A stretch of 64,000 nucleotides of DNA from positions 1-64,000 of the IMG/VR virus record IMGVR_UViG_3300032046_000003; one strand, written 5' to 3'. The stretch is from a virus (lineage: Duplodnaviria; Heunggongvirae; Uroviricota; Caudoviricetes). The notes under the pieces were generated by a model, which ran no database searches, was not told the origin of the DNA, and worked only from the letters and a program-made list of their open reading frames with translations. The position numbers were made by a program, and so were the translations under genes. Below, piece by piece: positions 29,918 through 53,071 of the stretch (position 1 is the first letter of the stretch; every line of letters begins with the position of its first letter).

Positions 29918-31096
29918 ATGGAAAACAAACTAAGTAAATTTATAATCGAAAGACATAAGAAGGATGGGACAGAAATTGCCCCAGTCAAGGTTAAGAAAGG
30001 CTATTGGATAGAGCTTCATAAAGAGAAGCAAGAAGGATTCATTTATTATCCTGGAACATTGGTACCCCACATACACTTCATGGAATGCAAAAAACACGAC
30101 AAGTATAACCAGCTCAAAGGCGGACCGATGCCTTGGACCAATCCCGAGACTATTGAGATAAACAAAGAGCTTTTGGCCACGCCTAATATATATGAAAAGA
30201 TGCTGAAAGCACAGAAAGATAACGACACTAAAACAATCGAATTCCTTTCAAAGCCTCTGGTGACCTGGGTATGCCCTCAAACATTAGGTAAAAAATCAAT
30301 ATATGCAGCTGATGTCACAGTGCATAATCGAAACGCCAAGAGTGAATATGTATTCGATCAAATAGATAGATTCGAAGAAGGCATAAAGAGGCTTGAAGGC
30401 ATATACAATAAAGAACGAGTAAAGACAACTCGAGGAATTGCCGCATTGGTCAACTTGCTATCAGCCAAATTCTGCTTCAGGGTCGGGAACAACACAGACA
30501 AAAAGACCTCCGGCATAGGAGTCACGACATTCAGGCCGCACAACATAAAGGTGGATAAGCGTAGCATAATACACTTTGTATTCAGAGGCAAGAAGAAAGT
30601 CAAGTGGCACAAGGTGCTGAGGCCTCATACAGACCTCGAGAATAAAATGTATGATGATTTAGTAGCCCTTAAGAACAGAGACAAAGAGTTCCTATTCACG
30701 AATGGTGAAAGAGTAGATAGTGGAGTAGCAAACGAACTGTTCAGAGAGGCAATGGATGTCAAAGAAGACGAAAGAGACTTCTTGTCATTCCACAGTTGGA
30801 GGCATTGGAACGCCTCTAAAGCCATCACTGAACAGGTCGCCAAATTGAGACTCAACAGGAAGCTTAATAAGATAATGAGAAGCAAACGTTCAGGCAACAA
30901 GGACCTCTCCAAGGCGCGATTAATAAATAAGAGTATAAATACATTATTCAAGAAGGTTGCAAAGATTCTGAATGATACGCCGGGAGTTGTTAAGTCGACC
31001 TACGGTGGAGCTCAACCGATCAGGAAATTATATGAGGACAATGGAATAAAATACGACGAGAAACGCAGATCGTTTGACAAGGAGATAATAAAATGA
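29918..31096 (+). CDS. type IB DNA topoisomerase (poxvirus/bacterial type)
   Basis: Blocks VHNRNAKSEY, ..FCFRVG, GVTTFRPHNIKV..FVFRGKKKV, EFLFTNG, HSWRHW, VKSTYGG align with vaccinia TopIB conserved blocks (recalled from memory). Confidence 0.65.
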   Translation: MENKLSKFIIERHKKDGTEIAPVKVKKGYWIELHKEKQEGFIYYPGTLVPHIHFMECKKHDKYNQLKGGPMPWTNPETIEINKELLATPNIYEKMLKAQKDNDTKTIEFLSKPLVTWVCPQTLGKKSIYAADVTVHNRNAKSEYVFDQIDRFEEGIKRLEGIYNKERVKTTRGIAALVNLLSAKFCFRVGNNTDKKTSGIGVTTFRPHNIKVDKRSIIHFVFRGKKKVKWHKVLRPHTDLENKMYDDLVALKNRDKEFLFTNGERVDSGVANELFREAMDVKEDERDFLSFHSWRHWNASKAITEQVAKLRLNRKLNKIMRSKRSGNKDLSKARLINKSINTLFKKVAKILNDTPGVVKSTYGGAQPIRKLYEDNGIKYDEKRRSFDKEIIK

Positions 31097-31698
31097 CACT
31101 TAAAAAATATACGATTAATATAAATTCAGCGGAAAAGTCTCAAAAGCAGCATATCAGAGTGTCCTCAACAGGAAAGCCATTTAGTGCCGGTAAAGGATCA
31201 AGTAAAATTATTGGGACTACTAGAGATGGTAGAACCAATGTTATAGCTAATACTTCTCGTGTTTCATATGATGAATTTATAGCATCATCACAGAAAAAAA
31301 ATGAATATAATGATACTAAATCTTTTATAAAAGACCCTATAATGGAAGCAATTGATGAAGCTATTATGGCAAAAGAAGACTGGAAGAGTTTAGTAGACAA
31401 TTTGGACTATGATATAGTTGAACAAATAATGACTGAAAACGAAGTACCAGAAAAGACTGCTCAAAATATCGTTGATGAAGCTAAAAAAGAATTGATTGAA
31501 TATGGTAATGAAAGAATGAATGCTAAAATAATTAAATTTGACGACCTTATGGATTCAGTTAAATATGTGGCTAAACCAATGAGAAGCGGTGAAGAACCTT
31601 TCTATATGTTTAGATTAGGTGGCAAAAGCTATAGGGTTCAGGACACTGCAGAAGTGCCTAAGATTGCTAAAAAAATGGGCTATAAGATAATATACTAG
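31093..31698 (+). CDS. protein of KQHIRVSSTGKPFSAGKG family (MTLKKY N-terminus)
   Basis: ATGA-coupled; shares 25-aa module with ORFs at 34641, 50316, 52520. Confidence 0.5.
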   Translation: MTLKKYTININSAEKSQKQHIRVSSTGKPFSAGKGSSKIIGTTRDGRTNVIANTSRVSYDEFIASSQKKNEYNDTKSFIKDPIMEAIDEAIMAKEDWKSLVDNLDYDIVEQIMTENEVPEKTAQNIVDEAKKELIEYGNERMNAKIIKFDDLMDSVKYVAKPMRSGEEPFYMFRLGGKSYRVQDTAEVPKIAKKMGYKIIY

Positions 31699-31744
31699 TC
31701 CCCTGCAAACGTTCAACCGGAGTGACCCCAGAGGCATCTAATAA

Positions 31745-31942
31745 ATGATTAAATCAGACATATACCTTATTGATATAGCCAGGACCTCAAAAAGACATCA
31801 TGACATTATAGACAGATATTTCAATCCTAATCATGCTTGTTTTGGATGTTTGCCTTTAGCGTACGCGACCTTAAAGAACGCATGCGAGATTAGAGGATAT
31901 AATATAGAAGAGATACTAAAGGAGCTCAATAATGACTCTTAA
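31745..31942 (+). CDS. hypothetical small protein
   Basis: ORF. Confidence 0.3.
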   Translation: MIKSDIYLIDIARTSKRHHDIIDRYFNPNHACFGCLPLAYATLKNACEIRGYNIEEILKELNNDS

Positions 31943-32153
31943 AAAGTTTAAATTTGATGAAAATTCAACCAAAATAGAAAAATCTAAAACTTATTTTTGC
32001 AATTCTTGTCAAGAGAATCACGAAATTGATAGCGCAATTGGTAAGAAACACGCTAACAAAATTAAAAACAAAATGAAACCAAAATTAGAAAGTAAAGAAT
32101 TTAGAGCTGGTTATATGAAAGAAAAATTAGAGGACACAGTTAATGAAAGATAA
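31932..32153 (+). CDS. small zinc-binding protein (MTLKKFKFDEN N-terminus)
   Basis: Paralog of 14267 ORF (FCNSCQENH). Confidence 0.4.
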   Translation: MTLKKFKFDENSTKIEKSKTYFCNSCQENHEIDSAIGKKHANKIKNKMKPKLESKEFRAGYMKEKLEDTVNER

Positions 32154-32457
32154 ATTGCTTATACTTAAATCATCTCAAAGAATGCATAGACGTGTCAGTA
32201 AAAACGGCAAGGTGTTCTATGCAGGTACGGATGCAAACGAGGAATACGAGGAAGAGAAGCTTAAGCATCCTGTAAATTATAAAGTTAAACCTTTATCGGG
32301 TTTTGATAAGGGTGATAAAGTAGTTGTTGATGGTAAAAAAGGCGAAATACAGCACAAAAGTACTTCATTATTAGGTTATTCAGAATATGCTGTAGACTTT
32401 GAAGACGGAACTAGAAGATGGGTTAAAGAGGAAAAGTTGCGTTCAGAAGGAAAGTGA
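32143..32457 (+). CDS. hypothetical protein
   Basis: ORF. Confidence 0.4.
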   Translation: MKDKLLILKSSQRMHRRVSKNGKVFYAGTDANEEYEEEKLKHPVNYKVKPLSGFDKGDKVVVDGKKGEIQHKSTSLLGYSEYAVDFEDGTRRWVKEEKLRSEGK

Positions 32458-32696
32458 TTAACGTGGATAACAAAGAACATTGCTTCGCGTGCCCGTTTTG
32501 TAGATGCTCTAAAGATATGAATAAATTTAAAGGCATTCCCGGCATAGCAGAACTTGGATGTTATACGTGTCCTAATAAAACATGTTCATATTTATGGGGT
32601 GAAGACGCCTTGAAAAAACATTTAAAAAATGTGCATAATATTCATGAACCTCATCATATGAGAATAGATGGCCAGATTCACACTATAGACGATTAA
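32454..32696 (+). CDS. zinc-ribbon protein
   Basis: CFACPFCRCS..CYTCPNKTCS; GTG start. Confidence 0.4.
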   Translation: MINVDNKEHCFACPFCRCSKDMNKFKGIPGIAELGCYTCPNKTCSYLWGEDALKKHLKNVHNIHEPHHMRIDGQIHTIDD

Positions 32697-32706
32697 AGGA
32701 TAAATT

Positions 32707-33348: not shown

Positions 33349-33431
33349 ACTAATAAGTGTAGGTTAATAGACTGCACAAATCGACAGTTGTAAAACCGTC
33401 ACACCAAGCTTTCTTTAGAAAGCCCTCAGCT

Positions 33432-33504: not shown

Positions 33505-34644
33505 TTGAATTATAATGTATTGATGTGGAAGGCAGATTTAGCGGGATGCGGTTGGGCACGCATAGAGATGATAGCCAAGTACTTGAACAAGTACTGTAGT
33601 GGCGACATCAAGGCCACATCTTCAATGGTAATGGACCCTGCTAGTTGGGTCGTAACAGACAATAAGGGCCAGGTTGTAAAGAGAAATTACGATCTAACGG
33701 TTCATCAAAGGCAATATGGGGACAACAACTTAAGGAATTTTAACTTTTTAAAAAACACTTTAAAGATACCCTGCATATACGAGATAGACGATTATCTGCA
33801 CGGTGTCAGCAAAGAGAGCACGGCTTATTTCGCTTATAATCCCAATAGGAATCCGGAGAGATTCGCAAACATAGAGGCCTATCTGAGGCAGGCGGACCTC
33901 GTTACCGTTACGACGGAATATTTGAAAAAACTGTATTCGTTGTACAGCAAAAACATAGTCGTTCTTCCCAACTGCATTGATTTCGAGGATGTGTTCACCG
34001 AAGAGGCGACCAAAAAGACTGATCACGGGGACGAAATATGGCTGGGCTGGGCCGGAAGCAACACCCACCTGCCGGACATAAAACTGATAAATGACGTTAT
34101 AAAGCAGATTCTAGATGACTATCCCAACGTGAAATTGGCCCTGGGCGGTTGGGACGGCAAGATGAGGGACAAGGAAGGCAAGTTCGTTTTAGAGAATCTT
34201 TATCCTTGGAAAGACATACCCGACAGCAGGATAGTTAACATACCATGGGCCAAAGAGATGAAAGACTACCCCAAGATGATAGCCCAGTTTGATATAGGTA
34301 TCGCTCCACTAGAAGACACTGATTTCAATAGAGCTAAATCTAATATTAAGTTCTTGGAATACGCCTCGTGCGGGGTTGCGGTGGTGGCCTCAGATGTCGA
34401 GCCTTATACTGCAACTATAATAAATGGTGAAACTGGTTATTTGTGCAAAACCAGGGGGGCGCTATTTGCAGACTGGTATAAAAAGCTCAAGAAACTAATA
34501 GAGAGCAAGGAATTAAGATTGACAATGGGCGCTAATGCCAAAAAATATGTTAAAGAGAATTTTGACATTAAAAACAATATTTATAAGTGGAAGGACTGCT
34601 ATACAGAATTAATAGAGAAATTTCGCAAGGAGAATAACTTATGA
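33505..34644 (+). CDS. GT-B fold (GT1/GT4-like) glycosyltransferase
   Basis: C-terminal FLEYASCGVAVVASDVEPYTATIINGETGYL typical of GT4 nucleotide-sugar site; TTG start. Confidence 0.6.
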   Translation: MNYNVLMWKADLAGCGWARIEMIAKYLNKYCSGDIKATSSMVMDPASWVVTDNKGQVVKRNYDLTVHQRQYGDNNLRNFNFLKNTLKIPCIYEIDDYLHGVSKESTAYFAYNPNRNPERFANIEAYLRQADLVTVTTEYLKKLYSLYSKNIVVLPNCIDFEDVFTEEATKKTDHGDEIWLGWAGSNTHLPDIKLINDVIKQILDDYPNVKLALGGWDGKMRDKEGKFVLENLYPWKDIPDSRIVNIPWAKEMKDYPKMIAQFDIGIAPLEDTDFNRAKSNIKFLEYASCGVAVVASDVEPYTATIINGETGYLCKTRGALFADWYKKLKKLIESKELRLTMGANAKKYVKENFDIKNNIYKWKDCYTELIEKFRKENNL

Positions 34645-35708
34645 CAGTAAAAACTTACAGATCACGTGAATTCAGCGCTTATCAAGATAACAGGGGCATA
34701 GAAAAGTCCAGCGGTATTTCCACGGACGCCAGGGAGCTGAAACTGGGTGCTGATTCTGACAGACCAAAAAATATATTAGAAAGTTTACTGAACGCATATA
34801 GAGGGCAGTCGCAAGGCGCGAACCTGAAAATGAGGGCTTTTGAGATAGCCACTTCGGCCTTTAACGATCCTGGGCTGAGGGACGAACTGTACAAAAAGTG
34901 GGGGACCGCGGACAAAGTTAAAGTTATTGACAGTTTAGCTCAGCTCATATATGATGTGTTCTTTGAAAGTAAACCCGAAGCGCCTGGAGTAGTTGTTCAA
35001 CCTGAGATGGTCATGCCCAAATTGAATATTGATATAACCGTCAGGCAGGAGCCCACCGAGAAGGCCCAAAAGAGGCATATAAGAGTGTCATCCACAGGTA
35101 AACCTTTCAGCGCTGGCAAAGGCGCGAGTAAAATCAAATTCAATTGGACTGAAACAGATGTAATACCAGTTAGAGGACTATCGAACAAAGAAGATAAAAA
35201 AGAACCATTAGTTCACCCAGCAAAAAAACAATCTGGTAATGGACCTCTTCCTAAAAATGCTTTGCAATATAAAGATGTACCATTAGATCGTTTACCTTTT
35301 GATAAATGGTTAGAGAAAATCGACTCCACTCCTGAAACAGGATTGAGAGAATATTTCAAACAACATGGTATGGAATACATAGACACTCCCGGTAATTATC
35401 ACGAAGAGAAAGATCAATATGAAAGTATACAAGAGTTCATGGAACAAGGAATGGGAACAGAGGAATTTAATAAATTGAAAGATGCTTATAATAAGATACG
35501 AGAAAAATCAATTGATGATTTAGATGTAGAAAAAGTATATTCAAAGAAACAAGCCAGATTATTTGGTGCAATTGCCGGTGGAGTAAAAGTTCCTGGAGTT
35601 GATATATCTCCCTCTAAAGCAAGAGACGAATTGAGAGATGTTAAAGTAAGTAAGCTGCCTGAAACATCACATAAGAAAAAATCATTGCCAGTGTTAAAAG
35701 GAAATTAA
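34641..35708 (+). CDS. protein with internal KQHIRVSSTGKPFSAGKG-like module
   Basis: EKAQKRHIRVSSTGKPFSAGKGASK at mid-protein. Confidence 0.5.
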   Translation: MTVKTYRSREFSAYQDNRGIEKSSGISTDARELKLGADSDRPKNILESLLNAYRGQSQGANLKMRAFEIATSAFNDPGLRDELYKKWGTADKVKVIDSLAQLIYDVFFESKPEAPGVVVQPEMVMPKLNIDITVRQEPTEKAQKRHIRVSSTGKPFSAGKGASKIKFNWTETDVIPVRGLSNKEDKKEPLVHPAKKQSGNGPLPKNALQYKDVPLDRLPFDKWLEKIDSTPETGLREYFKQHGMEYIDTPGNYHEEKDQYESIQEFMEQGMGTEEFNKLKDAYNKIREKSIDDLDVEKVYSKKQARLFGAIAGGVKVPGVDISPSKARDELRDVKVSKLPETSHKKKSLPVLKGN

Positions 35709-35709: not shown

Positions 35710-35883
35710 ATGACACTTAAAAAACAAATATCTACATATTGGAACAGCTCATTTGAGAAGGCACGCGGGGTAGAGATGAAGAAATATGGAGATAAAATCA
35801 AAATAGAAGGTTATCCCAATTATACTTTCCCTGATGTTAAATCAGCAAAGGAATTTTTAGACAAAGCAAGCAAGATTAAGTAA
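35710..35883 (+). CDS. small protein (MTLKKQ N-terminus), 57 aa
   Basis: Own translation; ATGA-coupled. Confidence 0.35.
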   Translation: MTLKKQISTYWNSSFEKARGVEMKKYGDKIKIEGYPNYTFPDVKSAKEFLDKASKIK

Positions 35884-35978: not shown

Positions 35979-37442
35979 ATGCCTATAGATTTAGAGACTT
36001 TCTTATACGCCGAAGATTATCTTCATATGCCTAAATTATCTGCAGAACAGTTCAGGGTTCTCAGGGAACTGGACGATGATAATCCTGACACCAACAAGAT
36101 ACTAGAGGCTGTTTTGGTATGGGGTAAAGGTGGCGGTAAGGACTGGATTTCTGCTATATTCATATCGCGCAGAGTGTATAAGTTATTATGTAGAGCCAAT
36201 CCTCAAGCTTTTTACGGGCTGCCGCAAGGCGAGCCTATAGACATTTTGAATGTTGCTGTTTCAGCAGAACAAGCAAATTCCGTATTCTTTACGAAATTAA
36301 CCAACATAATAAAACACGCAGGTAAAAAGACATTCATTGAGTTTGGTTTCGATCCTATTAAAGACATCAAGGCCAATAAGATAGTTTTCCCGAAAGAAAT
36401 AAGAGTCTTCTCAGGTCACTCAGAACAAGAGTCAATGGAAGGTAAAAACTTATTTGCCGCAATAATGGACGAAGCGGCTGCTTTCAAAACAGAATCTGAA
36501 CTGAAAGGCAAAGGCCCTAGAGCTAAAAGAAGCGCTAAAGCTCTATATGATTCTTTGTCTTCCTCTATCAGGTCTCGTTTTCCTAAAGTTGGCAAACTAG
36601 TAATAATCTCATATCCTAGGTTTACTAATGACTTCATACTACAAAGATATGATGCCTGTAAAAACAAGCCTGATGCTTTAATTAGTTTTGGAGCTACATG
36701 GGACATTAATCCTCTTGTTAAAAGAGAAGATTTTACTAAAGATTACAGAGACAATCCCGAACAGTCTAAATCAATGTATGAGTGCGTTCCCCCTAAGGCT
36801 AAAGAGCCGTTCATACGAGAGCAAGAGAAAGTAGACTTAATAATAGACAGGACGGTAAGAACGCCTTACGATATGTGGGGGCAATACTTTCCTGAGTTCA
36901 GAGGCAAGCCATTCTCTTATTCAATAGGGATAGATTTATCATTAACGGGCGACTCTACCGGATTCGCTCTATTGCATAAAGAGAAAAGACAGGACAAAGA
37001 CATTGTTGTTATCGACCTGTTAAAGAAATGGACTGCCGAGCCCGGCAGAGAAATAGACTTGGAAGAGATCAAAAGGGAAATTGTATTTTTAAGGTCCAGG
37101 GGGTTCAATATAGCCTCTATATTATTCGATCAATTTCAATCTGCTCACATGATCCAGGAACTCAAGAAACAAGGTTTCAACGTAGACACCCAGTCTATAG
37201 AGAGAAACTTGGACATATGGAATTCGGTCAAGGCCTTGATTTATAACGGTGAACTGAAAATATACGACAGCGAAATTTCTTACGAGCTAATCGAGGAACT
37301 GAAAGGGCTCAGCCTGATAGCCGGCAATAGAGTAGACCACATAGGGGATTTTAGTGCTAAGGATTTATCTGATGCAGTTGTAAGAGCAGTTCACGGATTG
37401 GTTCAAACGCAAGGCAACGATTTTTCATGGAAAGTTATGTGA
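35979..37442 (+). CDS. terL: terminase large subunit
   Basis: Walker A-like WGKGGGKD, Walker B IMDEAAAF, nuclease domain IGIDLSLTGDSTGFALL. Confidence 0.8.
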   Translation: MPIDLETFLYAEDYLHMPKLSAEQFRVLRELDDDNPDTNKILEAVLVWGKGGGKDWISAIFISRRVYKLLCRANPQAFYGLPQGEPIDILNVAVSAEQANSVFFTKLTNIIKHAGKKTFIEFGFDPIKDIKANKIVFPKEIRVFSGHSEQESMEGKNLFAAIMDEAAAFKTESELKGKGPRAKRSAKALYDSLSSSIRSRFPKVGKLVIISYPRFTNDFILQRYDACKNKPDALISFGATWDINPLVKREDFTKDYRDNPEQSKSMYECVPPKAKEPFIREQEKVDLIIDRTVRTPYDMWGQYFPEFRGKPFSYSIGIDLSLTGDSTGFALLHKEKRQDKDIVVIDLLKKWTAEPGREIDLEEIKREIVFLRSRGFNIASILFDQFQSAHMIQELKKQGFNVDTQSIERNLDIWNSVKALIYNGELKIYDSEISYELIEELKGLSLIAGNRVDHIGDFSAKDLSDAVVRAVHGLVQTQGNDFSWKVM

Positions 37443-37451: not shown

Positions 37452-38558
37452 ATGGAGCAAATAAATCTTTTTAAAGTGTTCATGGCCGAATCCGTTATAG
37501 ACGAGTTAAAGCAGGTTTTATACTCTGGATTCATAGGCGAAGGCAAGAAAGTAATTGAATTTGAAAAACAAATATCCGAAAAATTCAATACTCCTTATGC
37601 TTTGGCGGTTAACAGCGGCACATCAGCCTTACATTTAGCGTATCAGATTATAGCCGATTATGATGAAGACTCGGAGTTTATAGTAAGTCCTCAAACATGC
37701 TCAGCCACTCTTACGCCTATTATTGCCAATAGATGCAAGATTGTTTGGGCGGATATTGACCCTATTTCTGGTAATATAGACCCTATGGATATTGAAAGAA
37801 AAATCACTCCGAAGACCAAGGCAATCATAATGGTGCACTGGGGCGGCAATCCTTGCAATATAAAAAAAATAAATGAAATAGCCAAAAAATATAACATTAA
37901 AACAGTGGAAGACGCGGCTCACTCATTAGGTACTAAATATGATGGACAGTATTTGGGTAAGTTCTCTGATTTTACAATGTTTTCTTTACAGGCCATAAAG
38001 CATATTACAAGCGTAGACGGCGGAATATTGTGCTGTAAGGATAAAGATAATTATGACAGAACTAAATTATTGCGTTGGTATGGAATTGATAGGTCAGAAA
38101 ATAGACAGGTCAAAGACTTAAGATGCGAATTGGACCTAAAAGAATGCGGCCACAAATTCCATATGAATGACGTAAACGCGACTATAGGCATAGAGAATTT
38201 AAAGCATTTAGACACAACGGTCGCGGCCCACAAAGCTAACGCTGAATTTTATAATGAAGCATTTAAAGACAAGATTCAATATGCTAAGCCAGAAGAAAAC
38301 GTAGAGTGTTCTTATTGGCTTTACACTATTCATGTTAACAACAGAGATGAGCTGATGGAGAAACTAAAAGAGAACAACATAATGTCTTCTAAGGTTCACG
38401 CCAGAAACGATGTTCACAGCTGCTTTAGCCGATTCAACAAGATACTGCCAAACGTAGATTTATTCAACAAAACTCATCTATGCATTCCGGTTCACTGGGG
38501 AATAACCCACGAACAAAGAGAATATGTGGCAGAACAAGTCTTAAAATATGCGAGATGA
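37452..38558 (+). CDS. DegT/DnrJ/EryC1-family PLP-dependent sugar aminotransferase
   Basis: Fold-type I aminotransferase blocks (..SGTSALHLA.., ..VDGG lysine region). Confidence 0.8.
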   Translation: MEQINLFKVFMAESVIDELKQVLYSGFIGEGKKVIEFEKQISEKFNTPYALAVNSGTSALHLAYQIIADYDEDSEFIVSPQTCSATLTPIIANRCKIVWADIDPISGNIDPMDIERKITPKTKAIIMVHWGGNPCNIKKINEIAKKYNIKTVEDAAHSLGTKYDGQYLGKFSDFTMFSLQAIKHITSVDGGILCCKDKDNYDRTKLLRWYGIDRSENRQVKDLRCELDLKECGHKFHMNDVNATIGIENLKHLDTTVAAHKANAEFYNEAFKDKIQYAKPEENVECSYWLYTIHVNNRDELMEKLKENNIMSSKVHARNDVHSCFSRFNKILPNVDLFNKTHLCIPVHWGITHEQREYVAEQVLKYAR

Positions 38559-44084: not shown

Positions 44085-45070
44085 TAACCGGGGTGACAGG
44101 CCAAGATGGAAGTTATCTTACTGAATTACTTCTTGACAAAGGATATGAAGTCTGGGGAGTGAAAAGAAGATCAAGCTCTTTTAACACCGCCAGAATAAAT
44201 CATATTTTTGATAAAATACAATTATTATACGGCGATTTAACCGATTCAAGCATAGTTTCTATTATTCAAGACGTAATGCCTGATGAGATTTACAATCTAG
44301 CGGCTCAAAGTCACGTTAAGGTCAGTTTTGATATTCCTGAATATACAGTGAACTCTATAGCTCTTGGAACCTTAAGAATTTTAGAGACTATTAGGTCTAT
44401 TAAAGACAAACAAATAAAAATGTACCAGGCTTCAAGCAGTGAAATGTTCGGCTCAAGTCTTCCGCCCCAAAACGAAAATACTCTTTTCAATCCACAGAGT
44501 CCGTATGCCTGTGCAAAAGTCTTTTCATATAACCTTACAAGAAACTACAGGAAAGCTTATAACGTGTTTGTTTCTAACGGTATTTTATTTAATCATGAAA
44601 GTCCAAGAAGAGGAGAGACTTTTGTTACCAAAAAAATAACAAGAGGGTTGGCAAGAGTCGCAGCGGGATTAGAAGATAAAATAACTTTAGGAAACTTGGA
44701 TGCCAAAAGAGATTGGGGGCATTCTAAAGATTACTGCGAGGCGATGTATTTAATGTTGCAGCAAGATACGCCAGATGATTTCGTTGTAGCTACTGGTGAA
44801 AGTCATTCAGTTAGAGAGTTTTTAATAAAGTGTCTAGAGTGGATAGGCACAGATTACGAGTTTGTAGGAACCGGACTGCAGGAGAAAGTGGTAGACAAAA
44901 AGACCGGACAGGTAATCGTAGATATAGACGAGAAATTTTTTAGGCCGTCTGAGGTTAATTATTTATGCGGTGATTCAAGCAAAGCGAGAAAATTGTTAGG
45001 CTGGAATCCAAAAGTAACTTTTGACGAATTGGTCAGCTCAATGATGGAAGAAGACTTTAAAAATGTTTGA
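44060..45070 (+). CDS. gmd: GDP-mannose 4,6-dehydratase
   Basis: LITGVTGQDGSYL Rossmann motif; SDR YxxxK region; overall Gmd-like. Confidence 0.85.
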   Translation: MSKSKTCLITGVTGQDGSYLTELLLDKGYEVWGVKRRSSSFNTARINHIFDKIQLLYGDLTDSSIVSIIQDVMPDEIYNLAAQSHVKVSFDIPEYTVNSIALGTLRILETIRSIKDKQIKMYQASSSEMFGSSLPPQNENTLFNPQSPYACAKVFSYNLTRNYRKAYNVFVSNGILFNHESPRRGETFVTKKITRGLARVAAGLEDKITLGNLDAKRDWGHSKDYCEAMYLMLQQDTPDDFVVATGESHSVREFLIKCLEWIGTDYEFVGTGLQEKVVDKKTGQVIVDIDEKFFRPSEVNYLCGDSSKARKLLGWNPKVTFDELVSSMMEEDFKNV

Positions 45071-45989
45071 ACAGACTAAAAAAACGCTCATTACGGGCGC
45101 TCACGGAATGGTGGGGAACTGCCTAACCGAAAAGCTAAAAGAGTTCGGGTACAATGATTTGCTAACTCCAACAAGACATGATTTAGATTTAACCGATTCA
45201 AAGCAAGTAGATAATTACATATATGAAACTAGACCGAAATACGTTTTTCATCTGGCAGCGGTTGTCGGAGGCATTCAATTTAACATTGACAATCCTGTTA
45301 AAATGCTAAAAGATAACTTAAAAATAAATATAAACGTGTTTGAATCCTGTAATAAATACAAGATTGAAAAAATGTTATATTTGGGTTCATCTTGCACATA
45401 TCCCGCCGAATGCAAACAACCTATGAAGGAAGAATACTTGCTGACAGGCAAATTAGAACCCACTAATGAGGGATATGCCTTGGCAAAGATTATAGGTTTA
45501 AAATTGGCAGAATATTATAAAAAACAAAACGGTTTGAATGTTGTATGCTTAATACCCCCCAATTTATATCACGAGAATAAAATAGCAGATTCAAAATCTC
45601 ATGTTCTTGAAGCTTTAGTAAAAAAAATATGTGAAGCAAAGATCAACAGTTTTTCAAACGTAATTGTATGGGGAGATGGAGAATCACGCAGAGAATTAAT
45701 GCACGCAGATGATATAGCAGATGCAATGTTATATTTCATAGATAAGAATCCCGGTTTAATAAACGTTGGAACTGGTTTAGACTGCTCAATAAAAGAATTA
45801 ACGCAAATGATCGCCGAAGAGACTGAATACGCCGGTGAGATTACCTGGGATAAAACGAAGCCAAACGGAATGCGCAAGAAGCTAATGAATGTAGACAAAA
45901 TGAAGAGTTTTGGATTCAAACCAAAAATTAGTATTCGCGAGGGTATTAAAAGAAGCATTAAAAAATATATGGAGTTGAGCAAAGTATGA
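45063..45989 (+). CDS. fcl: GDP-L-fucose synthase (GDP-4-keto-6-deoxymannose 3,5-epimerase/4-reductase)
   Basis: LITGAHGMVG; immediately downstream of gmd. Confidence 0.8.
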   Translation: MFEQTKKTLITGAHGMVGNCLTEKLKEFGYNDLLTPTRHDLDLTDSKQVDNYIYETRPKYVFHLAAVVGGIQFNIDNPVKMLKDNLKININVFESCNKYKIEKMLYLGSSCTYPAECKQPMKEEYLLTGKLEPTNEGYALAKIIGLKLAEYYKKQNGLNVVCLIPPNLYHENKIADSKSHVLEALVKKICEAKINSFSNVIVWGDGESRRELMHADDIADAMLYFIDKNPGLINVGTGLDCSIKELTQMIAEETEYAGEITWDKTKPNGMRKKLMNVDKMKSFGFKPKISIREGIKRSIKKYMELSKV

Positions 45990-47152
45990 TACCATTAATG
46001 AAAAATGCTTTTAGCAATGAAGTAGACACCTGCCAAAAACTTTCGCAGTTTATTGCATCTGTCCCCAAATTATCTATGGGTGATAAATGCGAACAATTTG
46101 AGCAAGAATTCGCCAAGTATCAAGAAAGAAAATATTGTATATTAGTTAACAGCGGTGGAAGCGCCAATCTTCTTTTAATACAAACGCTAAAGAATATGGG
46201 CAAAATAAAGAAACACGCAAAAGTTGGATTTTCTTCTTTAACCTGGTCTACAAACGTGATGCCTATAATACAACAGGGATTAATTCCAATTCCCATAGAC
46301 TGCTCAATAAAAACCTTGAATGTGATGTCGGATGAATTAGAAAAGACAATAAAAAATCATCATATAGACGTGTTCTTTTCTACGAATGTTCTAGGCTTTA
46401 TGGGTGATTTATATGCGATTAAGAGGATATGCGAAGAAAACAATGTATTATATATTGAAGATAACTGCGAAGCATTAGGTTCGGAATCTAATGCAATTAA
46501 AGCCGGCAATTTTGGCTTGGCCTCTACATTCAGCTTTTTCGTAGCGCACCACCAAAGCTCTATAGAAGGTGGTATAATTGCTACTGACGATGAAGAGCTG
46601 GCCATGAATTTAACATTAAGCAGAGCTAATGGGTGGGATCGTAATTTGCCGGCTGATAAGCAAGAATTGCTTAGAAAAAACAATAACATCAAATCTGAAT
46701 TTCACTCAAAATATATATTTTATGATTTGGGCTTCAATTTTCGTCCTACAGAAATTACAGGCTTTCTCGGATTAAATCAATTAGTATATTTAAAGTCTAA
46801 CTTAAAAATACGTGAAAATAATTATAAAGAGATAGATGCCGTTATTAAAAACAACGACGAACTGGCGTCTATTAATACAAATTATTACGATTTTATTCCT
46901 GCATTCTCTACTCCAATTGTTGCTAAAACTAAAGAATTAAGAGACAAGTACTTTGAGCGATTTAAAGATAACGTAGAAATAAGGCCTATTATTGCGGGTA
47001 ATATAACCAATCAGCCATTTTGGAATAAATATGTCAATGCCAATTACGATTTGCCTGGCACAGATTTTATTGATCAAAATGGGTTTTACTTCACTAACGA
47101 CCCGGCGCTTAAGCGAAAAGAAATAGATTTAATAAAAGATTTATTGAGGTAA
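45986..47152 (+). CDS. DegT-like PLP-dependent aminotransferase (second copy)
   Basis: ..VNSGGSANLL..; DegT-like length and block order. Confidence 0.65.
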   Translation: MIPLMKNAFSNEVDTCQKLSQFIASVPKLSMGDKCEQFEQEFAKYQERKYCILVNSGGSANLLLIQTLKNMGKIKKHAKVGFSSLTWSTNVMPIIQQGLIPIPIDCSIKTLNVMSDELEKTIKNHHIDVFFSTNVLGFMGDLYAIKRICEENNVLYIEDNCEALGSESNAIKAGNFGLASTFSFFVAHHQSSIEGGIIATDDEELAMNLTLSRANGWDRNLPADKQELLRKNNNIKSEFHSKYIFYDLGFNFRPTEITGFLGLNQLVYLKSNLKIRENNYKEIDAVIKNNDELASINTNYYDFIPAFSTPIVAKTKELRDKYFERFKDNVEIRPIIAGNITNQPFWNKYVNANYDLPGTDFIDQNGFYFTNDPALKRKEIDLIKDLLR

Positions 47153-47160
47153 AGCTGGCA

Positions 47161-48000
47161 ATGGCACCACTGTGGACTATTGGAACGGTTAATTATAAAA
47201 CAGAATCCTATTTGCCTTGGAAGCTCAAAATGATGTATGAAAACGAAGACAGCTCCAAGTTTGAATATGTAATTGTAGACAACTCCCCGGTACACAATGA
47301 ACAATTCTTTAGTTTCTTAAAGCAAAAATATCCTCTGATAAAAGTTATTCCATTCGTTCCAAAAGACGTTAACAGAACTTCAGGAGAACATGGCGAAGGA
47401 TTAAACGTAATATTAGACGAAGCGAGAAAAAACGGTTCTACATATTTAATGGTATACGACCCAGACTTCTTTTGGGTACAAAAATATCTATTAGATTATT
47501 TCGAAAGAGCAATCAAGATTGAAAATTACGTTGCGATAGGCGCTCCGTATACTATTCATATAGGACACGGTAATCCTTTATTTCCTGTAGCATTTGGGTG
47601 TGTTTATCCTGTGAAAGCTTTGGACGGGCTAGATTTTTCAACCTCTAAAGACCCACATGAATTGCTGATTGGTGGTAAGGATGTCGGCTGGAAAATAAGA
47701 GTCAATTTATCTGACAAAAAGTTTTTAACATTTATTCAATCAGATGTTCCAGCTAATGAAAGAATGCCAGGACAATATAGCTTCGAATGTATTCTTAGAC
47801 AATATTTTTTATACGGAAAAAGAATAGCATATCATTTACATAGGGGCTCGTTTGATGATGGTTTGGCAAAATTTCAAGCAGAAAATTGGCGTTCGGATAG
47901 AAATAAAGATTTACACGAACCTCCAACAAATTGGATTGCATTAAGAGAGGCCTATTGCCAAAAATATTATGAGGAGTTAACCAAAAGTGCAAGATTTTAA
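47161..48000 (+). CDS. GT2-like glycosyltransferase
   Basis: WTIGTVNYK..YVIVDNSP; paralog of N-domain of 39283 ORF. Confidence 0.55.
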   Translation: MAPLWTIGTVNYKTESYLPWKLKMMYENEDSSKFEYVIVDNSPVHNEQFFSFLKQKYPLIKVIPFVPKDVNRTSGEHGEGLNVILDEARKNGSTYLMVYDPDFFWVQKYLLDYFERAIKIENYVAIGAPYTIHIGHGNPLFPVAFGCVYPVKALDGLDFSTSKDPHELLIGGKDVGWKIRVNLSDKKFLTFIQSDVPANERMPGQYSFECILRQYFLYGKRIAYHLHRGSFDDGLAKFQAENWRSDRNKDLHEPPTNWIALREAYCQKYYEELTKSARF

Positions 48001-48505
48001 AATTAGATTAATTGAAAGAGAAGACTTAGATTTTATAAGAGAAATTAGAAGTAACCCGGAAACTACAAAATATCTTGGTACATTTGAATTATTAAGCAAA
48101 GAAAAACAAGAAAAATGGTTTGAAGGTTTGTTGAATGACAATAGCAGAATGTATTTTATATTCGAGCTTAATAAAAAAAGAATAGGCTACCTTAGAATAA
48201 CAGCTATTGATTATATAAATCGTTCAATGTGCGTCGGGGGAGATATACACAAGAAGTTTAGAGGCAAGGGCTACAGCAAGAAAATGTTTGACTTGATATT
48301 CGATCTTGGATTTTATAAAATGAATTTTAATAAGATGTGGCTTTATGTGCTTGAATCAAACGCAAGAGCCCGACACATTTATAAAAAACTCGGATTCAAA
48401 GAAAATGGAATATCCCGCGAAGCTGTATATAAAGATGGTAAGTATTTGGACTATATCTATATGGATATTCTTTGTAAGGAAATGCAAATAGAAAAGGAGA
48501 GATAA
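47987..48505 (+). CDS. GNAT family N-acetyltransferase
   Basis: GNAT-like motif A region (..VGGDIHKKFRGKGYSKKM..); GTG start. Confidence 0.6.
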   Translation: MQDFKIRLIEREDLDFIREIRSNPETTKYLGTFELLSKEKQEKWFEGLLNDNSRMYFIFELNKKRIGYLRITAIDYINRSMCVGGDIHKKFRGKGYSKKMFDLIFDLGFYKMNFNKMWLYVLESNARARHIYKKLGFKENGISREAVYKDGKYLDYIYMDILCKEMQIEKER

Positions 48506-49708: not shown

Positions 49709-49723
49709 AGGAGTTGAAGTAAA

Positions 49724-50314
49724 GTGGCTATAAGAGACGGATCGAATTTAATGAATAGAAGCTGGAACTGCAGGAATTGTAGTAGAGAACCAAACTGGGG
49801 AAAAAGAAATTGTAAAAAATGTGCTAACTATTATACTTCAGAATTTAAAGACGCATCTAAAATAAGAGCAATAAAAGATCGAAGAGAAAAACGAGAAGCT
49901 AGAATAAATTCACCTAAAGAGCTTATAGATGCGTATAATTATATAAGAGATGCTTTAAATTTACAAGGTTATCTGCCTGTTGCTGAATCGATAACATTTA
50001 GGTGGAATAGCAAAAGAGCAACCACGGGATTAGGAACATGTTGGAAAGATAAGAAGCTTATTGCGGTAACGTGGAAATACAGAGATTTTGCAGATAGAAT
50101 GGAAACATACAATAGACAGAATTTACTTGAGACAATGTTGCACGAGGCGCTTCATTTAAGAATGCCTCATCACAAGAAATCATTTAAGAGAAAAGAGCAA
50201 GAACTAATAATCAAATTGAGAAAAATAACCGGGCATACGGGACATATCGAATTCAAAACAGAAAACAATGAAGTACTAGAACAACTAGAACAAATCGTAC
50301 AAGGAGCAAACTAA
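49724..50314 (+). CDS. zinc-ribbon + HExxH metallopeptidase-like protein
   Basis: CRNCSREPNWGKRNCKKC; MLHEALHLRMPHH; GTG start after AAGGAGTTGAAGTAAA (same start context as ORF 245). Confidence 0.5.
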   Translation: MAIRDGSNLMNRSWNCRNCSREPNWGKRNCKKCANYYTSEFKDASKIRAIKDRREKREARINSPKELIDAYNYIRDALNLQGYLPVAESITFRWNSKRATTGLGTCWKDKKLIAVTWKYRDFADRMETYNRQNLLETMLHEALHLRMPHHKKSFKRKEQELIIKLRKITGHTGHIEFKTENNEVLEQLEQIVQGAN

Positions 50315-50315
50315 A

Positions 50316-51314
50316 ATGGCATTAAGTAAATATACAACTAGCGATAATACATTTGAAGATTACGTTGCAAAGTCGGGTATAAACTTGGAGAAATCTAAAG
50401 GTCCTTGGAAAAAGGGAAAGAAGTATATAGATTCAGATAGAATATCTAGTGATGAAGATAGAAAGGCAGATAGATTATTTGTAAAAGAACATGAAAAAGA
50501 ATTTAATAAGATTCCAGAACGTAAATTTAGACAACAACAGGAAAAATGGGTTAAGGAGCATTTTCAAAAAGAGTCGGGTGAGACATTGGAAGTAGAGAAA
50601 GCTCAACAAGAGGCGCATATTAGAGTCTCCTCAGCTGGTAAACCTTTTTCTGCTGGTAAAGGAGCTAAAAAAGTAGAAGTTCCTATTAAATTCAAAAAGT
50701 TGGTTGATGATGTAATATTAACAGAATTTTCCGGACATCATATCATAAAAGAAAAGTTACAAGAAACCCACGCTAAAATAGGTAATTACTCTTTGAGAAG
50801 TTATGATAATAGTCAATATTTAGTTAGAAGTTTAAAAAATGCAGGTTTTCCAGATTTGAATAAAATAAATGCCTCTCTTGAGAAAAAAGGTTATACACTA
50901 GATGAAGGCTGGCAAGATGACAAAGGCAGGATTAACGAAGAGCAGTTTAACAATCTGTTTTGGGATGACGTAAGAATAACCGCCGAAGAACTAGAACAGA
51001 AATATCCCGGATTTGCAGTAGTTGGTAGAACAGGCGGATGGTGGGGAATTAATGCCGATGAAATAGAATCTTATGTAGACATATTTGTCAATTACAATAA
51101 AATACTTAAACAAATGGGCCCTAATGCAACTTATGATGATATATATGAATATGTTCAAGGCCATCAAGATAACGTGTTAGGAAACATTACTTTACAAGAA
51201 GGCGCAAAACTCAAAGCCTTAGATTTAGACCTAAATTCAATGGTAAAGCATTTTGAATCAACTGACCGATGGGTAGAACAGCTTATAGAAAACAATTACG
51301 CAACAAAAAATTAA
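50316..51314 (+). CDS. protein with internal KQHIRVSS-like module (AHIRVSSAGKPFSAGKGAKK)
   Basis: Own alignment to 31093/34641/52520 ORFs. Confidence 0.5.
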   Translation: MALSKYTTSDNTFEDYVAKSGINLEKSKGPWKKGKKYIDSDRISSDEDRKADRLFVKEHEKEFNKIPERKFRQQQEKWVKEHFQKESGETLEVEKAQQEAHIRVSSAGKPFSAGKGAKKVEVPIKFKKLVDDVILTEFSGHHIIKEKLQETHAKIGNYSLRSYDNSQYLVRSLKNAGFPDLNKINASLEKKGYTLDEGWQDDKGRINEEQFNNLFWDDVRITAEELEQKYPGFAVVGRTGGWWGINADEIESYVDIFVNYNKILKQMGPNATYDDIYEYVQGHQDNVLGNITLQEGAKLKALDLDLNSMVKHFESTDRWVEQLIENNYATKN

Positions 51315-51317
51315 CAG

Positions 51318-51346
51318 TTTAAATCTTGCAATAAGTGCATTATAAT
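51318..51346 (+). promoter_or_regulatory. sigma70-like promoter TTTAAA-17-TATAAT (CAGTTTAAATCT family)
   Basis: Conserved extended motif. Confidence 0.5.
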
Positions 51347-51387
51347 TAATATAGATTATAATGTTGACCCAAAAGGAGAGAATAAAA

Positions 51388-52518
51388 ATGGTATTAAATG
51401 TAAACAGATCGAGAGAGGCGAACATACATCAAGAGAATGAGTTAAGTATTGAGAAATCAGCTAGGACACAGACTATAGAGAAGGCAAGTAAGTATGGAGA
51501 GGGCAAAAAAGAGGTTTCAGTTACAGTTCATCCATCAGAAGGTTTACCATTCCAAAGGAAGCAAAAGGTTGGTAGAGCTAATTCAAAGCATCAAGATAAT
51601 TACGAATCAAGAGTAGATGATGCTAATAAAAAAATGGCTAAAGAATATTTAAAGAAAAACTATCCTAATACATATTTATCAGATAAAAAAATAATGTCAA
51701 TAGCACAATTATCTATGAAAGTTCCTCCTAAACCACAATATGAAGGCGATACTGTTTTATTAAAACATGAAACTGCAACAAAAGAAACTCGTTTAGCTGC
51801 AACAATGACTAATTTTATCTCAGTGCTTACACATGCAAATAATGAATTGGCTGAAAATGGCATTATAACAGCTATATATGATGAACTTGGAATTAAGCAT
51901 AAAGAAGGCTGGAGTGGAAAGCCAGATATGGACACAGAAGAAAATTATAAAGACAACGAGCCAAATACAAATAAATGGTATAGTCCTAAAAAACTAGTTA
52001 CAGTTACAGATATTCAAACTAAATATAATGGATTACCTTTCGAAAAGGTAGAAGATAATTATAATTATAGACAACATGTTGAATATTTTACTAAACAAAA
52101 AGCTAGAGACGAAATGGTTGATATGAAGAAAATAAAGAATCCAAAGTATTATAATAGATTATCTGGGTCAATACCTAAATTAAACAGATTAGTTTCAAAT
52201 GCTTTAGGAATGGATATTAAATTTGAAATGTTTGATGCTGAAGAAGATAGACGCGGTGGTTTAAGTGGTTATTTAAAAAGCAAAACATTTGCAGGTAAAG
52301 AATCATTAGGAATAATGTCTCATTCATTATCAAAAGTAGAATTTAATGTTCGCTTTGAAAGAACTAACGAGCATAATAAAGTATGGTGTCCTTTGCACAT
52401 GAGTTGGGAACATCATGATCGTGGTTCAAACGGTTCAGATGCATATACAACAGATGGCAAAAGATTAACCGCATATTACGATCAAATAGCTAATACATGG
52501 ACTTTGGAGGGAGAATAA
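51388..52518 (+). CDS. hypothetical protein (376 aa; possible virion protein)
   Basis: ATG 51388 after AAAAGGAGAGAATAAAA; first gene after promoter. Confidence 0.5.
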   Translation: MVLNVNRSREANIHQENELSIEKSARTQTIEKASKYGEGKKEVSVTVHPSEGLPFQRKQKVGRANSKHQDNYESRVDDANKKMAKEYLKKNYPNTYLSDKKIMSIAQLSMKVPPKPQYEGDTVLLKHETATKETRLAATMTNFISVLTHANNELAENGIITAIYDELGIKHKEGWSGKPDMDTEENYKDNEPNTNKWYSPKKLVTVTDIQTKYNGLPFEKVEDNYNYRQHVEYFTKQKARDEMVDMKKIKNPKYYNRLSGSIPKLNRLVSNALGMDIKFEMFDAEEDRRGGLSGYLKSKTFAGKESLGIMSHSLSKVEFNVRFERTNEHNKVWCPLHMSWEHHDRGSNGSDAYTTDGKRLTAYYDQIANTWTLEGE

Positions 52519-52519
52519 G

Positions 52520-53071
52520 ATGACACTTAAAAAATATAAAACTGACGATAATATTTCAATTGAGAAAACTCAAAAGCAGCATGTAAGGGTTTCATCTACA
52601 GGTAAACCATTCTCGGCCGGCAAAGGAGCTTCTAAGACTCAAGATAAATTAGAGAAAGAATTTACTAATAAAGAAGCTCACAGAACGTCTGGTACATTAT
52701 ATTGGCCAGGAGATAAGACAGTAGTACCTGATACTAGAGAACTTTTTAATGATAAGATGGATAGAAAAGAAGAGTTTGAAGATACTAATGAAAGATCGTA
52801 TAAATTGCATGAATTTACCTCTGAACAAATTGAAGCATTAAGACATATATACAAACACAGATTGCTATTAGTTGGTGAAAAAACTTCAGCATTTGATAAT
52901 ATATTTGTTGAAGACACTTCCGATCCAAAGAATCCTCATGTTAAAAGTCTTGAATGGATTATAAATCATCCTGCAAAAGGATATTTCTATGTTGATAATG
53001 AAGGTTATAAATATTCAAGATATTCTATTCCTTTAAGTAAAGAAGTAATTGATGAAATAAGCAAGGTTTAG
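52520..53071 (+). CDS. protein of KQHIRVSSTGKPFSAGKG family (MTLKKY N-terminus)
   Basis: N-terminal 40 aa nearly identical to 31093 ORF. Confidence 0.5.
   Translation: MTLKKYKTDDNISIEKTQKQHVRVSSTGKPFSAGKGASKTQDKLEKEFTNKEAHRTSGTLYWPGDKTVVPDTRELFNDKMDRKEEFEDTNERSYKLHEFTSEQIEALRHIYKHRLLLVGEKTSAFDNIFVEDTSDPKNPHVKSLEWIINHPAKGYFYVDNEGYKYSRYSIPLSKEVIDEISKV

Follow-up and report, generated by a model that had tools for sequence, protein, structure and literature searches.

The proteins that a phage packages and injects are its first means of countering host defences, and they are very hard to recognise from sequence. The targeting signals of T4, P1 and phiKZ-like phages were each defined experimentally in a single phage, and they have no sequence in common. 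T4 possesses capsid targeting sequences (CTSs) and SPN3US possesses shared N-terminal propeptides; T4, phiKZ and SPN3US also display shared cleavage motifs and C-terminal auto-trimming of the protease (PMC5694885). In P1, the N-terminal 30 amino acids of DarB are enough for a heterologous protein to be packaged in the head (PMC9024508). Polyvalent proteins, which are multi-domain, carry ParB-like domains and are encoded next to head genes, are packaged and proteolytically processed, and this processing has been attributed to zincin-like metallopeptidase domains, not to a Peptidase_S78 site (PMC5512222). In HK97, the founding system of the Peptidase_S78 family, cleavage occurs at K103/S104, and a short scaffold strand (K92-G97) beside this position docks, in the procapsid interior, on the beta-sheet of the P-domain of the major capsid protein (PMC10275583). 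Here, we describe a peptide module carried by several proteins encoded in a 64-kb stretch of DNA (positions 1 to 64,000 of the IMG/VR record IMGVR_UViG_3300032046_000003; hereafter the window), which is part of a contig of about 178 kb from an uncultured tailed phage. This module is a composite of a short leader, a hydrophobic-E-K tetrapeptide (hereafter the EK site) and a conserved basic peptide (hereafter the box). By sequence, it belongs to no described family; its nearest functional counterparts are the T4/phiKZ-type propeptides and HK97-type maturation.

The first-pass annotation of the window had reported a 25-residue module shared by four otherwise different proteins. A shared peptide, SQKQHIRVSSTGKPFSAGKGASK, is indeed present: H[IV]RVSS[TA]GKPFSAGKG was found in four + strand open reading frames (ORFs, named here by their first nucleotide), namely ORFs 31093, 34641, 50316 and 52520. 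In a six-frame fuzzy scan of the window, the sequence HIRVSSTGKPFSAGKG is exact in ORFs 31093 and 34641, and occurs with one mismatch in ORFs 50316 (T to A) and 52520 (I to V). As had been noticed, the box is N-terminal in ORFs 31093 and 52520, with its histidine at residues 20 and 21, and internal in ORFs 34641 and 50316, with its histidine at residues 146 and 101. The count of four is correct for the strong copies, but a fifth, divergent copy (HRRVSKNGKVFYAGTD, in ORF 32143) had been overlooked; it is the sole further match within 8 mismatches. With a profile hidden Markov model (HMM) built from 87 unrelated instances, the five boxes of the window reached 26.6-41.7 bits (32.7 bits for the divergent one), while the rest of the window did not exceed 7 bits. 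The five proteins are otherwise different: once the module was masked, the best E-value of an all-against-all BLASTP comparison was 0.25, an 11-residue N-terminal leader excepted.

We then compared the four strong copies at the DNA level. They differ pairwise at 10-13 of their 48 nucleotides, which corresponds to 7-11 synonymous codon differences out of 16 and only 0-2 non-synonymous ones. Such a pattern results from purifying selection and not from recent duplication; the box peptide is thus under strong purifying selection on otherwise unrelated proteins. The near-identity of the four copies as protein could in principle be a by-product, without function, of recent duplication, gene conversion or low complexity. 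However, the synonymous sites are heavily diverged between copies, the box is not compositionally simple, no other six-frame match was found in the window within 8 mismatches, and the motif is kept in 87 protein clusters, whose viruses differ widely in GC content. Chance, low complexity and recent duplication were rejected on the basis of the six-frame scan, the codon analysis and this distribution, and the probability that we leave to them is practically negligible.

The 25 residues first reported are not a single unit. Reading the N-termini of all ORFs, we found that the leader has the form MTLKK[YF]xxDxN in this virus. The second element is a hydrophobic-E-K tetrapeptide followed by S, A, T or G, and the box starts 4-6 residues beyond it. 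A position-specific scoring matrix (PSSM) of the leader, made from relatives only, gave 17.8-31.7 bits to seven ORFs of the window, against a background of -15 +/- 9.7 for 501 ATG starts. Four of these ORFs (31093, 31932, 14267 and 52520) score about 31 bits each and three (54752, 34641 and 50316) about 18-20 bits. The leader also exists without the box, in ORFs 14267, 22494, 31932, 35710 and 54752. The two ORFs with an internal box, 34641 and 50316, display an ordinary leader with its EK site at the N-terminus and a second EK site (PTEK↓A and VEK↓A, respectively; the arrow marks the candidate cleavage position) directly before the box. Because of this second site, processing would free a C-terminal fragment starting with the box, and the product of ORF 34641 is predicted to be cut into at least two fragments, the C-terminal one beginning at the box.

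The same tetrapeptide recurs in three unrelated head proteins, both in this virus and in relatives found through their portal gene (L012-L018). The N-terminus of the major capsid protein reads MASLEK↓ALSSISGQGG in this virus and MGLEK↓A or MSFEK↓A in the relatives. The portal propeptide ends, just before a conserved M.AYLPTY, with SMAK↓S in this virus, preceded 8 residues upstream by SIDK↓S, so that these two sites close the N-terminal 30 or so amino acids of the portal encoded in the window; the relatives have SMEK↓S, SLQK↓S, TMEK↓S or SIEK↓S. The C-terminus of the protease-scaffold protein carries ..SIEK↓S in this virus and ..IEK↓S or ..VEK↓S in the relatives, followed by a conserved tail of about 25 residues. 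This last protein is a fusion of 656 amino acids (L002, 12284-14254) with a Peptidase_S78 domain at residues 19-170 (E = 5.8e-9), beyond which lies an acidic, zinc-ribbon-containing, scaffold-like region. On the contig, its gene lies just past the end of the window, together with a sigma70-like gene and the major capsid protein gene.

The association of the tetrapeptide with the box was then quantified. The pattern [ILVFMPA][EQ]K[SATG] was found within 12 residues before the box in 45 of 90 instances, and a relaxed pattern in 63 of 90. In the same proteins, the background frequency of the tetrapeptide is 0.013 per 12-residue window, i.e. an enrichment of about 40-fold upstream of the box. The spacing from tetrapeptide to box is 4-6 residues in 40 of these 45 cases. 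In addition, EK sites within the first 45 residues were present in 12 of 46 ORFs on the head-gene side and in 3 of 70 others (Fisher p = 0.001). Since the tetrapeptide is shared by the major capsid protein, the portal and the protease-scaffold, and since HK97 cuts between K103 and S104 (a site whose sequence we checked and which agrees), hydrophobic-E-K↓(S/A/T/G) is probably the maturation cleavage site of the prohead protease. The recognition signal proposed in the first-pass annotation would therefore exist, but as the tetrapeptide located 4-6 residues upstream and not as the conserved 16-mer. The major capsid protein and the portal have the site without the box, so the box is not needed for cleavage. 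The portal N-terminus was also considered as a copy of the type-A leader, and this was rejected because its PSSM scores are negative.

The leader with its EK site thus resembles the T4 CTS and the phiKZ and SPN3US propeptides in being a short N-terminal peptide common to several otherwise unrelated proteins of one phage. In T4 and SPN3US, this peptide ends at a prohead-protease motif that also serves to process the major capsid protein and the portal, and, judged by sequence, the leader and EK site of the window would be alike in this respect. However, the proteases of T4 and phiKZ cut after Glu (L/I-x-E, A/S-x-E), whereas here the P1 position of the candidate site is a Lys and the protease belongs to Peptidase_S78. 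The T4 CTS is moreover removed whole, whereas the box, which is the most conserved part of the present module, is located past the site and would be retained by the mature protein. The CTSs of T4, SPN3US and P1 each come from a single phage, whereas the box is conserved across very divergent viruses, and the module has no sequence similarity to the targeting peptides of T4 and phiKZ/SPN3US. The HK97 gp4 system is similar in that the same protease family is encoded in the head module and the candidate sites are of the K↓S type (..EK↓S/A/T).

Such a close link between site and box raises the question of whether the module could be a processing cassette only, i.e. a site plus an exosite for the viral protease, the box being idle after cleavage or providing a second site after Lys (TSK↓TGK). 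The tight spacing between EK site and box, the cleavage after Lys by the HK97-type protease and the presence of boxes between domains in four proteins (P0013, P0016, P0023 and P0030) would fit this explanation. However, the EK site occurs without the box in the major capsid protein, the portal and the protease-scaffold, many proteins with leader and EK site have other boxes, and leaderless members have the box without the EK site. Moreover, the residue that would be P1 in TSK↓T is S instead of K in the four strong copies of the window. A dedicated peptidase could also be sought in the zincin-like ORF located directly 5' of box ORF 50316 (49724-50314, with a HEALH motif), and the same gene pair is found in L005. 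However, this zincin assignment is not significant: the similarity of this ORF to the WLM/SprT-type protease Wss1p is weak (E = 0.71), and it has only three homologues, none of which has a Pfam domain. As a dedicated SprT/WLM-like leader peptidase, this ORF was rejected because of this E-value, because its three homologues are unannotated and because it is unlike the gene at the same position in L012. Overall, we regard a role restricted to processing as decidedly unlikely.

Word-indexed searches returned few homologues. An exhaustive profile search of 1.84 billion representative sequences yielded 87 clusters with the box (E <= 1e-3), with the consensus Q-x-x-H-x-R-(T/V)-S-(K/S)-x-G-K-x-(F/Y)-x-A-G-(K/S)-G. 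In 78 of 90 instances, the histidine of the box is among the first 40 residues (median position, 16), and boxes that are not N-terminal sit between domains of larger proteins. None of the curated families of Pfam-A and PHROGs covers the box, either in the window proteins or in more than 40 distant members, all significant matches being located in cargo domains. Likewise, no match covering the box was obtained in a profile search of the PDB, and searching the full-text literature for the literal motif strings gave no match. The box is absent from 185,579 species genomes, prophages included. When 50,697 phage records were searched by tblastn with three variants of the box, a GGxGSGR variant and that of L023, no real match was obtained. 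These results agree with the initial impression that no such family was known, and the HMM search that had been suggested as a check retrieved these 87 metagenomic clusters and no known ubiquitous domain.

The box is carried by very different proteins. In P0013 (951 aa), three or four boxes separate three stretches of ParB-like domains. A SAM-lyase domain occupies residues 265-365 of P0016 (38.5 bits, above the Pfam cut-off), with boxes at residues 150 and 407. A ParB-like domain is associated with a box in P0061 and P0087, and P0065 is a box protein with a DUF3846. The homologues of the C-terminal domain of ORF 52520 (P0002, P0029 and P0057) are likewise box-bearing, and no recognised domain was found in the cargo part of ORF 31093. 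Two orthologues of window proteins illustrate how the cargo can change. P0004, the orthologue of ORF 31093, has kept the module and the last 42 amino acids, while the middle 120 or so were swapped for a Gly-rich linker. P0015, the orthologue of ORF 50316 in L005, lacks exactly the 69 or so residues that separate the two EK sites, so that its box comes straight after the first site; the remainder is about 100% identical. These swaps and deletions of cargo with conservation of the module show that it is a stable handle on exchangeable cargo.

Other basic boxes are found behind the same leader and EK site. These alternative Gly/Lys-rich boxes read GG.GSGR(K/R/H)K, (S)KGPWKKGKK or GKPW..Q.R..G.G.G.KGKK; in the window, they are located at 50385-50420 and 54785-54860, and they also occur in L001, L009, L012, L013 and L017. 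The GG.GSGR(K/R/H)K box alone is present in at least seven genes of L013 and in five of L001, and the type found in ORF 54752 is shared with L012, L013 and L017. Within the window, ORF 51388 carries a degenerate relative of the box, VSVTVHPSEGLPFQRKQKVGR. Its relatives read VLVTR.GK.FMRKQKVGR, with TVTSKTGKTF in L006; with the box HMM, this L006 intermediate reaches 9.7 bits and the window copy is not significant.

The genomic position of the box genes was also compared between viruses. In the window, they are located on both sides of the terminase gene and precede the portal gene, an arrangement also found in L001, L006, L007 and L008. Between their terminase and portal genes, the syntenic relatives L001, L006, L007, L008 and L009 each encode two or three box proteins, with a shorter leader (M[KY]KLPIEK). 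In a quite different virus, L023, the order is terminase, portal, scaffold-like gene, Phage_Mu_F (Pfam), a 169-aa gene, an 847-aa gene, P0016 and another box protein. A third situation is that of L022, a high-GC sediment virus, with eight tandem genes that each start with M-x(4-8)-H-x-R-x-S-K-x-G-K-x-F-x-A-G, without leader or EK site, just upstream of tail-fibre-like genes.

Two independent AlphaFold2 (AF2) models predict the box as a beta-hairpin, with a strand at H-x-R-V, a turn at S-x-x-G-K and a second strand at x-F-x. For ORF 52520, the box is the best-predicted block (strands 22-24 and 30-32), with a mean predicted local distance difference test (pLDDT) score of 75. For ORF 32143, the hairpin (strands 16-18 and 24-26, pLDDT of about 70) is followed by a disordered linker and by a barrel at residues 59-95 (pLDDT 80-93). 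The best Foldseek E-value for this model was 0.03, in the eIF5A/eS4/Tudor class.

The explanation that we favour, to which we give roughly even chances, is that the module is a sorting-and-processing tag of packaged or ejected accessory proteins in an uncultured clade of large tailed phages. Such a tag would begin with the short leader, MTLKK[YF]xxDxN here or M[KY]KLPIEK in the relatives. It would continue with hydrophobic-E-K↓(S/A/T/G), for which the most likely enzyme is the HK97-type (Peptidase_S78) prohead protease of the virus itself. The third part would be the basic box of 16-20 amino acids, a predicted beta-hairpin that cleavage would place at the new N-terminus. From there, the box may act as a docking element that keeps the protein inside the procapsid or filled head, either by strand addition to a sheet in the portal or in a shell protein or by a clamp on the packaged DNA. 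It would thus mark unrelated cargo, including anti-defence-type enzymes, for packaging and for delivery with the genome. An action of the box at or near the N-terminus is suggested by the sites without box in the major capsid protein and the portal, by the other boxes of the relatives and by the leaderless boxes of L022. Docking is proposed for three reasons: the box is portable onto SAM lyase, ParB-like and DUF3846 families that are normally without it; the boxes adjoin terminase, portal and MuF genes in three types of viruses; and there are precedents in the T4 CTS, the N-terminus of P1 DarB and the ParB-type polyvalent proteins. Capsid targeting, which was among the first proposals, is therefore plausible from the near-N-terminal position, the portability and the types of cargo, all of which we read from sequence.

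For docking itself, the HK97 scaffold strand is a structural precedent, as a Gly/Lys/Phe-containing strand beside a K↓S site that docks onto the shell. This analogy has limits, since the HK97 strand is part of the major capsid protein's own scaffold domain and lies upstream of the site, whereas the hairpin would be downstream of it and on separate cargo. Homology of the box with this delta-domain docking strand was rejected (-1.3 bits with the box HMM), so that HK97 provides a mechanistic precedent only; we know of no internal cargo proteins in HK97. The polyvalent proteins offer a second comparison. The ParB-like proteins P0013, P0061 and P0087 and the SAM lyase P0016, encoded beside a MuF gene, fit this picture. 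Polyvalent proteins combine 2-15 effector domains with a location near head or MuF genes, which is the case of P0013, P0061 and P0016 but not of the five proteins of the window: these are small, and no effector domain was recognised in them with Pfam or PHROGs. The module has no sequence similarity to the P1 DarB signal or to polyvalent proteins.

Several observations weigh against a sorting tag. With the box HMM, no box-like element was detected in the scaffold, protease, portal or major capsid protein (none above 7 bits). The AF2 model of ORF 52520 is low overall (mean pLDDT 48). Some genes with a box or leader lie away from the head genes, such as ORFs 14267 and 22494 in the window, P0013 in L010 and P0061 in L024. 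In L012, L013, L015 and L017, the leader and EK site are followed by other basic boxes, so the box is dispensable for the role of the leader. Conversely, the box occurs without leader or EK site in about 14 distant members and in all eight genes of L022, and the link between box and cleavage is therefore lineage-specific. All members of the box family are metagenomic; ten clusters that were looked up are metagenomic, with one or two members each. Finally, box similarity is not significantly higher within a genome than between genomes (p ~0.095), and both variants coexist in L003. For these two reasons, we rejected a homogenisation of the box within genomes, which would have pointed to a receptor encoded by each virus and common to its boxes.

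The main alternative to a packaging tag is that the box is a nucleic-acid-binding arm of small DNA- or RNA-binding proteins with no role in virion incorporation, the EK tetrapeptide being merely part of the conserved N-terminus. Both the box and the segment that follows it are strongly basic (net charge +4 to +6, often followed by KK-rich stretches), the predicted fold is a beta-hairpin, and the cargo is in several cases an SH3/KOW/Tudor-like barrel or a zinc ribbon, i.e. a fold that typically binds nucleic acids. By eye, the box is also reminiscent of the RNPxTGK arm tip and of FxAGK in HU, and of TKNGRQVL in the ribosomal protein bL34, but this likeness was not borne out by profile comparison. 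The HU/IHF DNA-binding arm was rejected with an hhalign probability of 0.24% over 1 aligned column, and bL34 with 0.14% over 8 aligned columns (SKxGKvF vs. TKNGRQVL), Pfam Ribosomal_L34 giving no match at E <= 1. Moreover, generic DNA binding does not explain the invariant H, F and A-G, nor the strict placing near the N-terminus or after a site of the type found in the major capsid protein and portal, nor the fusion to enzymes such as SAM lyase. We consider this alternative unlikely. It would be compatible with the favoured explanation if DNA were the docking partner inside the head, and a box that binds nucleic acid instead would be a new small DNA/RNA-binding hairpin.

A last possibility is that the box is a short linear motif for a modifying enzyme or a host factor, for example an O-glycosylation sequon or a host-binding peptide used after injection. 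The box contains an invariant Ser with Ser/Thr/Lys neighbours. In addition, a GT1-family glycosyltransferase gene overlaps the start of box ORF 34641, and this gene, which adjoins the terminase gene, is kept there in L006 and L008. An 11-kb sugar-nucleotide/glycosyltransferase island (37452-48505) also lies between the terminase and the head accessory genes. Read by eye from translations, this island would encode a GDP-mannose dehydratase-like protein, an epimerase/reductase, aminotransferases, an acetyltransferase, methyltransferases and several glycosyltransferases; the Pfam check in these regions covered ORF 33505 only. However, sequons rarely need 16 conserved residues, L022 and L023 have boxes without a glycosyltransferase in the stretch that was read, and the rule of an N-terminal position after the EK site would be unexplained. 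Such a linear motif is very unlikely in our opinion.

If the tag directs packaging, the injected proteome of a group of environmental phages could be listed from sequence only. The specificity of the HK97-type protease in these phages would be defined as hydrophobic-E-K↓S, and a compact tag would be available to load foreign proteins into capsids. A broader proposal, tentative and rather unlikely, is that the box is a general cargo-loading peptide of tailed-phage heads, i.e. a hairpin of about 16 residues that would dock into a conserved site of the inner HK97-fold shell or on the portal in lineages ranging from 33% GC to high GC. In that case, the box alone would flag packaged and injected proteins, with anti-defence enzymes like SAM lyase and ParB-like nucleases among them, and its transfer to any protein could bring that protein into capsids. 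By analogy only, this recalls the cargo-loading peptides of encapsulins, which are also short and portable, with a flexible linker and unrelated cargo, and which act on the inner face of an HK97-fold shell. These peptides are usually C-terminal, with a different consensus. Unlike the module, they belong to bacterial compartments and involve no protease step. Encapsulated ferritins are the classic cargo of HK97-fold encapsulin shells; a weak EncFtn-like/ferritin-like segment (residues 139-192, E = 3e-4) was seen between the two boxes of the metagenomic protein P0030 (292 aa).

We also found similar N-terminal peptides in a cultured-phage record and in L023. Two hypothetical proteins of Bacteroides phage BS162P1 (OP172706) start with MKKEK.(I/V)K(T/S)YQRRTK(T/S)GK.VTV(R/K)AH. 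Their small, adjacent genes immediately precede that of the terminase and, as in the window, a topoisomerase IB gene is close by. In L023, both genes between the MuF gene and P0016 carry the variant HQRQLKSGK(V/T)V.VKG. The pattern common to the BS162P1 and L023 variants is [H/Y]-x-R-x-x-K-x-G-K-x-V-x-V, and what they have in common with the box is [H/Y]-x-R-x-x-K-x-G-K-x-(V/F). However, they score 2.5 to -10.8 bits with the box HMM, so homology is not supported, and their second strand reads V-x-V-x-x-H vs. F-x-A-G-K-G in the box. The order topoisomerase IB, N-terminally tagged small genes, terminase, portal is the same in BS162P1 (L025, 26-790) and in the window, which hints at a distant relationship and perhaps at a Bacteroidota-type host.

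The coordinates of the module-bearing ORFs and of their main neighbours are given in the table. One ORF of this list, 53671, has an internal site only, and its L012 orthologue (6047-6397) begins right at MKKLPILK↓AKKKPTRS.

Table. Features of the window that carry the module or parts of it, with neighbouring genes (the arrow marks the candidate cleavage position).
Feature	Position	Strand	Description
ORF 14267	14267-14467	+	Type-A leader (31.5 bits) and EK site (MTLKKFRIDENDNIEK↓V...), without box; zinc-ribbon-like small protein
ORF 22494	22494-22604	+	Short; leader and two EK sites (MTLNKYKIDVNVVEK↓S ... SSVEK↓S), without box
Topoisomerase IB, eukaryotic-type	29900-31096	+	Pfam Topoisom_I, 1.1e-14; directly 5' of the first box gene
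ORF 31093	31093-31698	+	201 aa; type-A leader MTLKKYTININS (31.7 bits); site AEK↓S 31129-31137; box HIRVSSTGKPFSAGKG 31150-31197 (41.7 bits)
ORF 31932	31932-32153	+	Type-A leader (31.6 bits) and EK site (MTLKKFKFDENSTKIEK↓S), without box
ORF 32143	32143-32457	+	104 aa; short leader MKDKLLILK↓SS; then box HRRVSKNGKVFYAGTD 32185-32232; C-terminal SH3/KOW/Tudor-like beta-barrel
GT1-family glycosyltransferase	33505-34644		Overlaps start of box ORF 34641; Pfam-checked
ORF 34641	34641-35708	+	355 aa; type-A leader MTVKTY..GIEK↓SS (18.7 bits), site 34698-34706; second site PTEK↓A 35055-35063; internal box 35076-35123 (41.0 bits)
ORF 35710	35710-35883	+	Leader MTLKKQ..SSFEK↓A (PSSM 8.8 bits, weak), without box
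Terminase large subunit	35979-37442	+	PHROG 2, E = 5.6e-19; box genes on both sides
ORF 50316	50316-51314	+	332 aa; leader MALSKY..NLEK↓S (50385-50393); SKGPWKKGKK basic box; further on, cassette of about 69 aa, second site VEK↓A 50592-50600 and box HIRVSSAGKPFSAGKG 50616-50663
ORF 51388	51388-52518	+	EK sites SIEK↓S and TIEK↓A, then degenerate box relative VSVTVHPSEGLPFQRKQKVGR
ORF 52520	52520-53071	+	183 aa; leader MTLKKYKTDDNIS (30.7 bits); site IEK↓T 52559-52567; box HVRVSSTGKPFSAGKG 52580-52627 (41.7 bits)
ORF 53671	53671-54351	+	Internal type-B leader-like site LPIEK↓SKKPTRS 53896-53904
ORF 54752	54752-55177	+	Type-A leader (20.1 bits), site NIEK↓G, then alternative basic box GKPWILQLRKPGKGKGK
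Portal protein	59772-61454	+	Pfam Phage_portal
MuF-like head morphogenesis candidate	61934-62761	+	HFNCRC motif read directly; no Pfam match

All genes of the window are on the + strand, with a GC content of about 33%. The window contains 17 tRNA genes (16144-16228 and 25167-29363), most of them in a single cluster, and HNH/Vsr-like endonuclease-type ORFs are interspersed among the tRNA genes. The major capsid protein gene is split into three pieces in L002 (about 14380-17103), each insertion carrying an HNH/Vsr-like endonuclease ORF, and into four pieces with endonuclease-bearing insertions in L012 (16117-18998). Group I introns were rejected as an explanation, since this split gene gave no match to the Rfam intron families at E <= 0.01. 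The actin-family gene of the window (22614-24749; Pfam Volactin, 5e-76) is interrupted by an intein with HNH and NUMOD3 motifs, and the terminase genes of L001/L006 and of BS162P1 appear, as read from sequence, to be interrupted by intein-like insertions.

The sigma70-like gene (62781-64000, running past the end of the window; 10848-12284 in L002) sits between the MuF-like gene and the S78 protease-scaffold gene, and regions 2, 3 and 4 are all above the Pfam cut-offs. A motif similar to the LPIEK↓S leader, IPI(V/Y/I)K(S/T/G), is conserved close to the N-terminus of this protein and of its orthologues. The protein may be a processed sigma factor delivered by the virion.

Finally, about ten consecutive small + strand ORFs at 7839-11795 end in an acidic tail ..(D/E)ES(I/L/V), for instance KEGESI, KEGESL, LDESL, ADESI, QDESI, EDESI, FEESL and LDESV. 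This tail motif is unrelated to the box, and the region has a GC content of 0.40-0.46 vs. about 0.33 elsewhere in the window.

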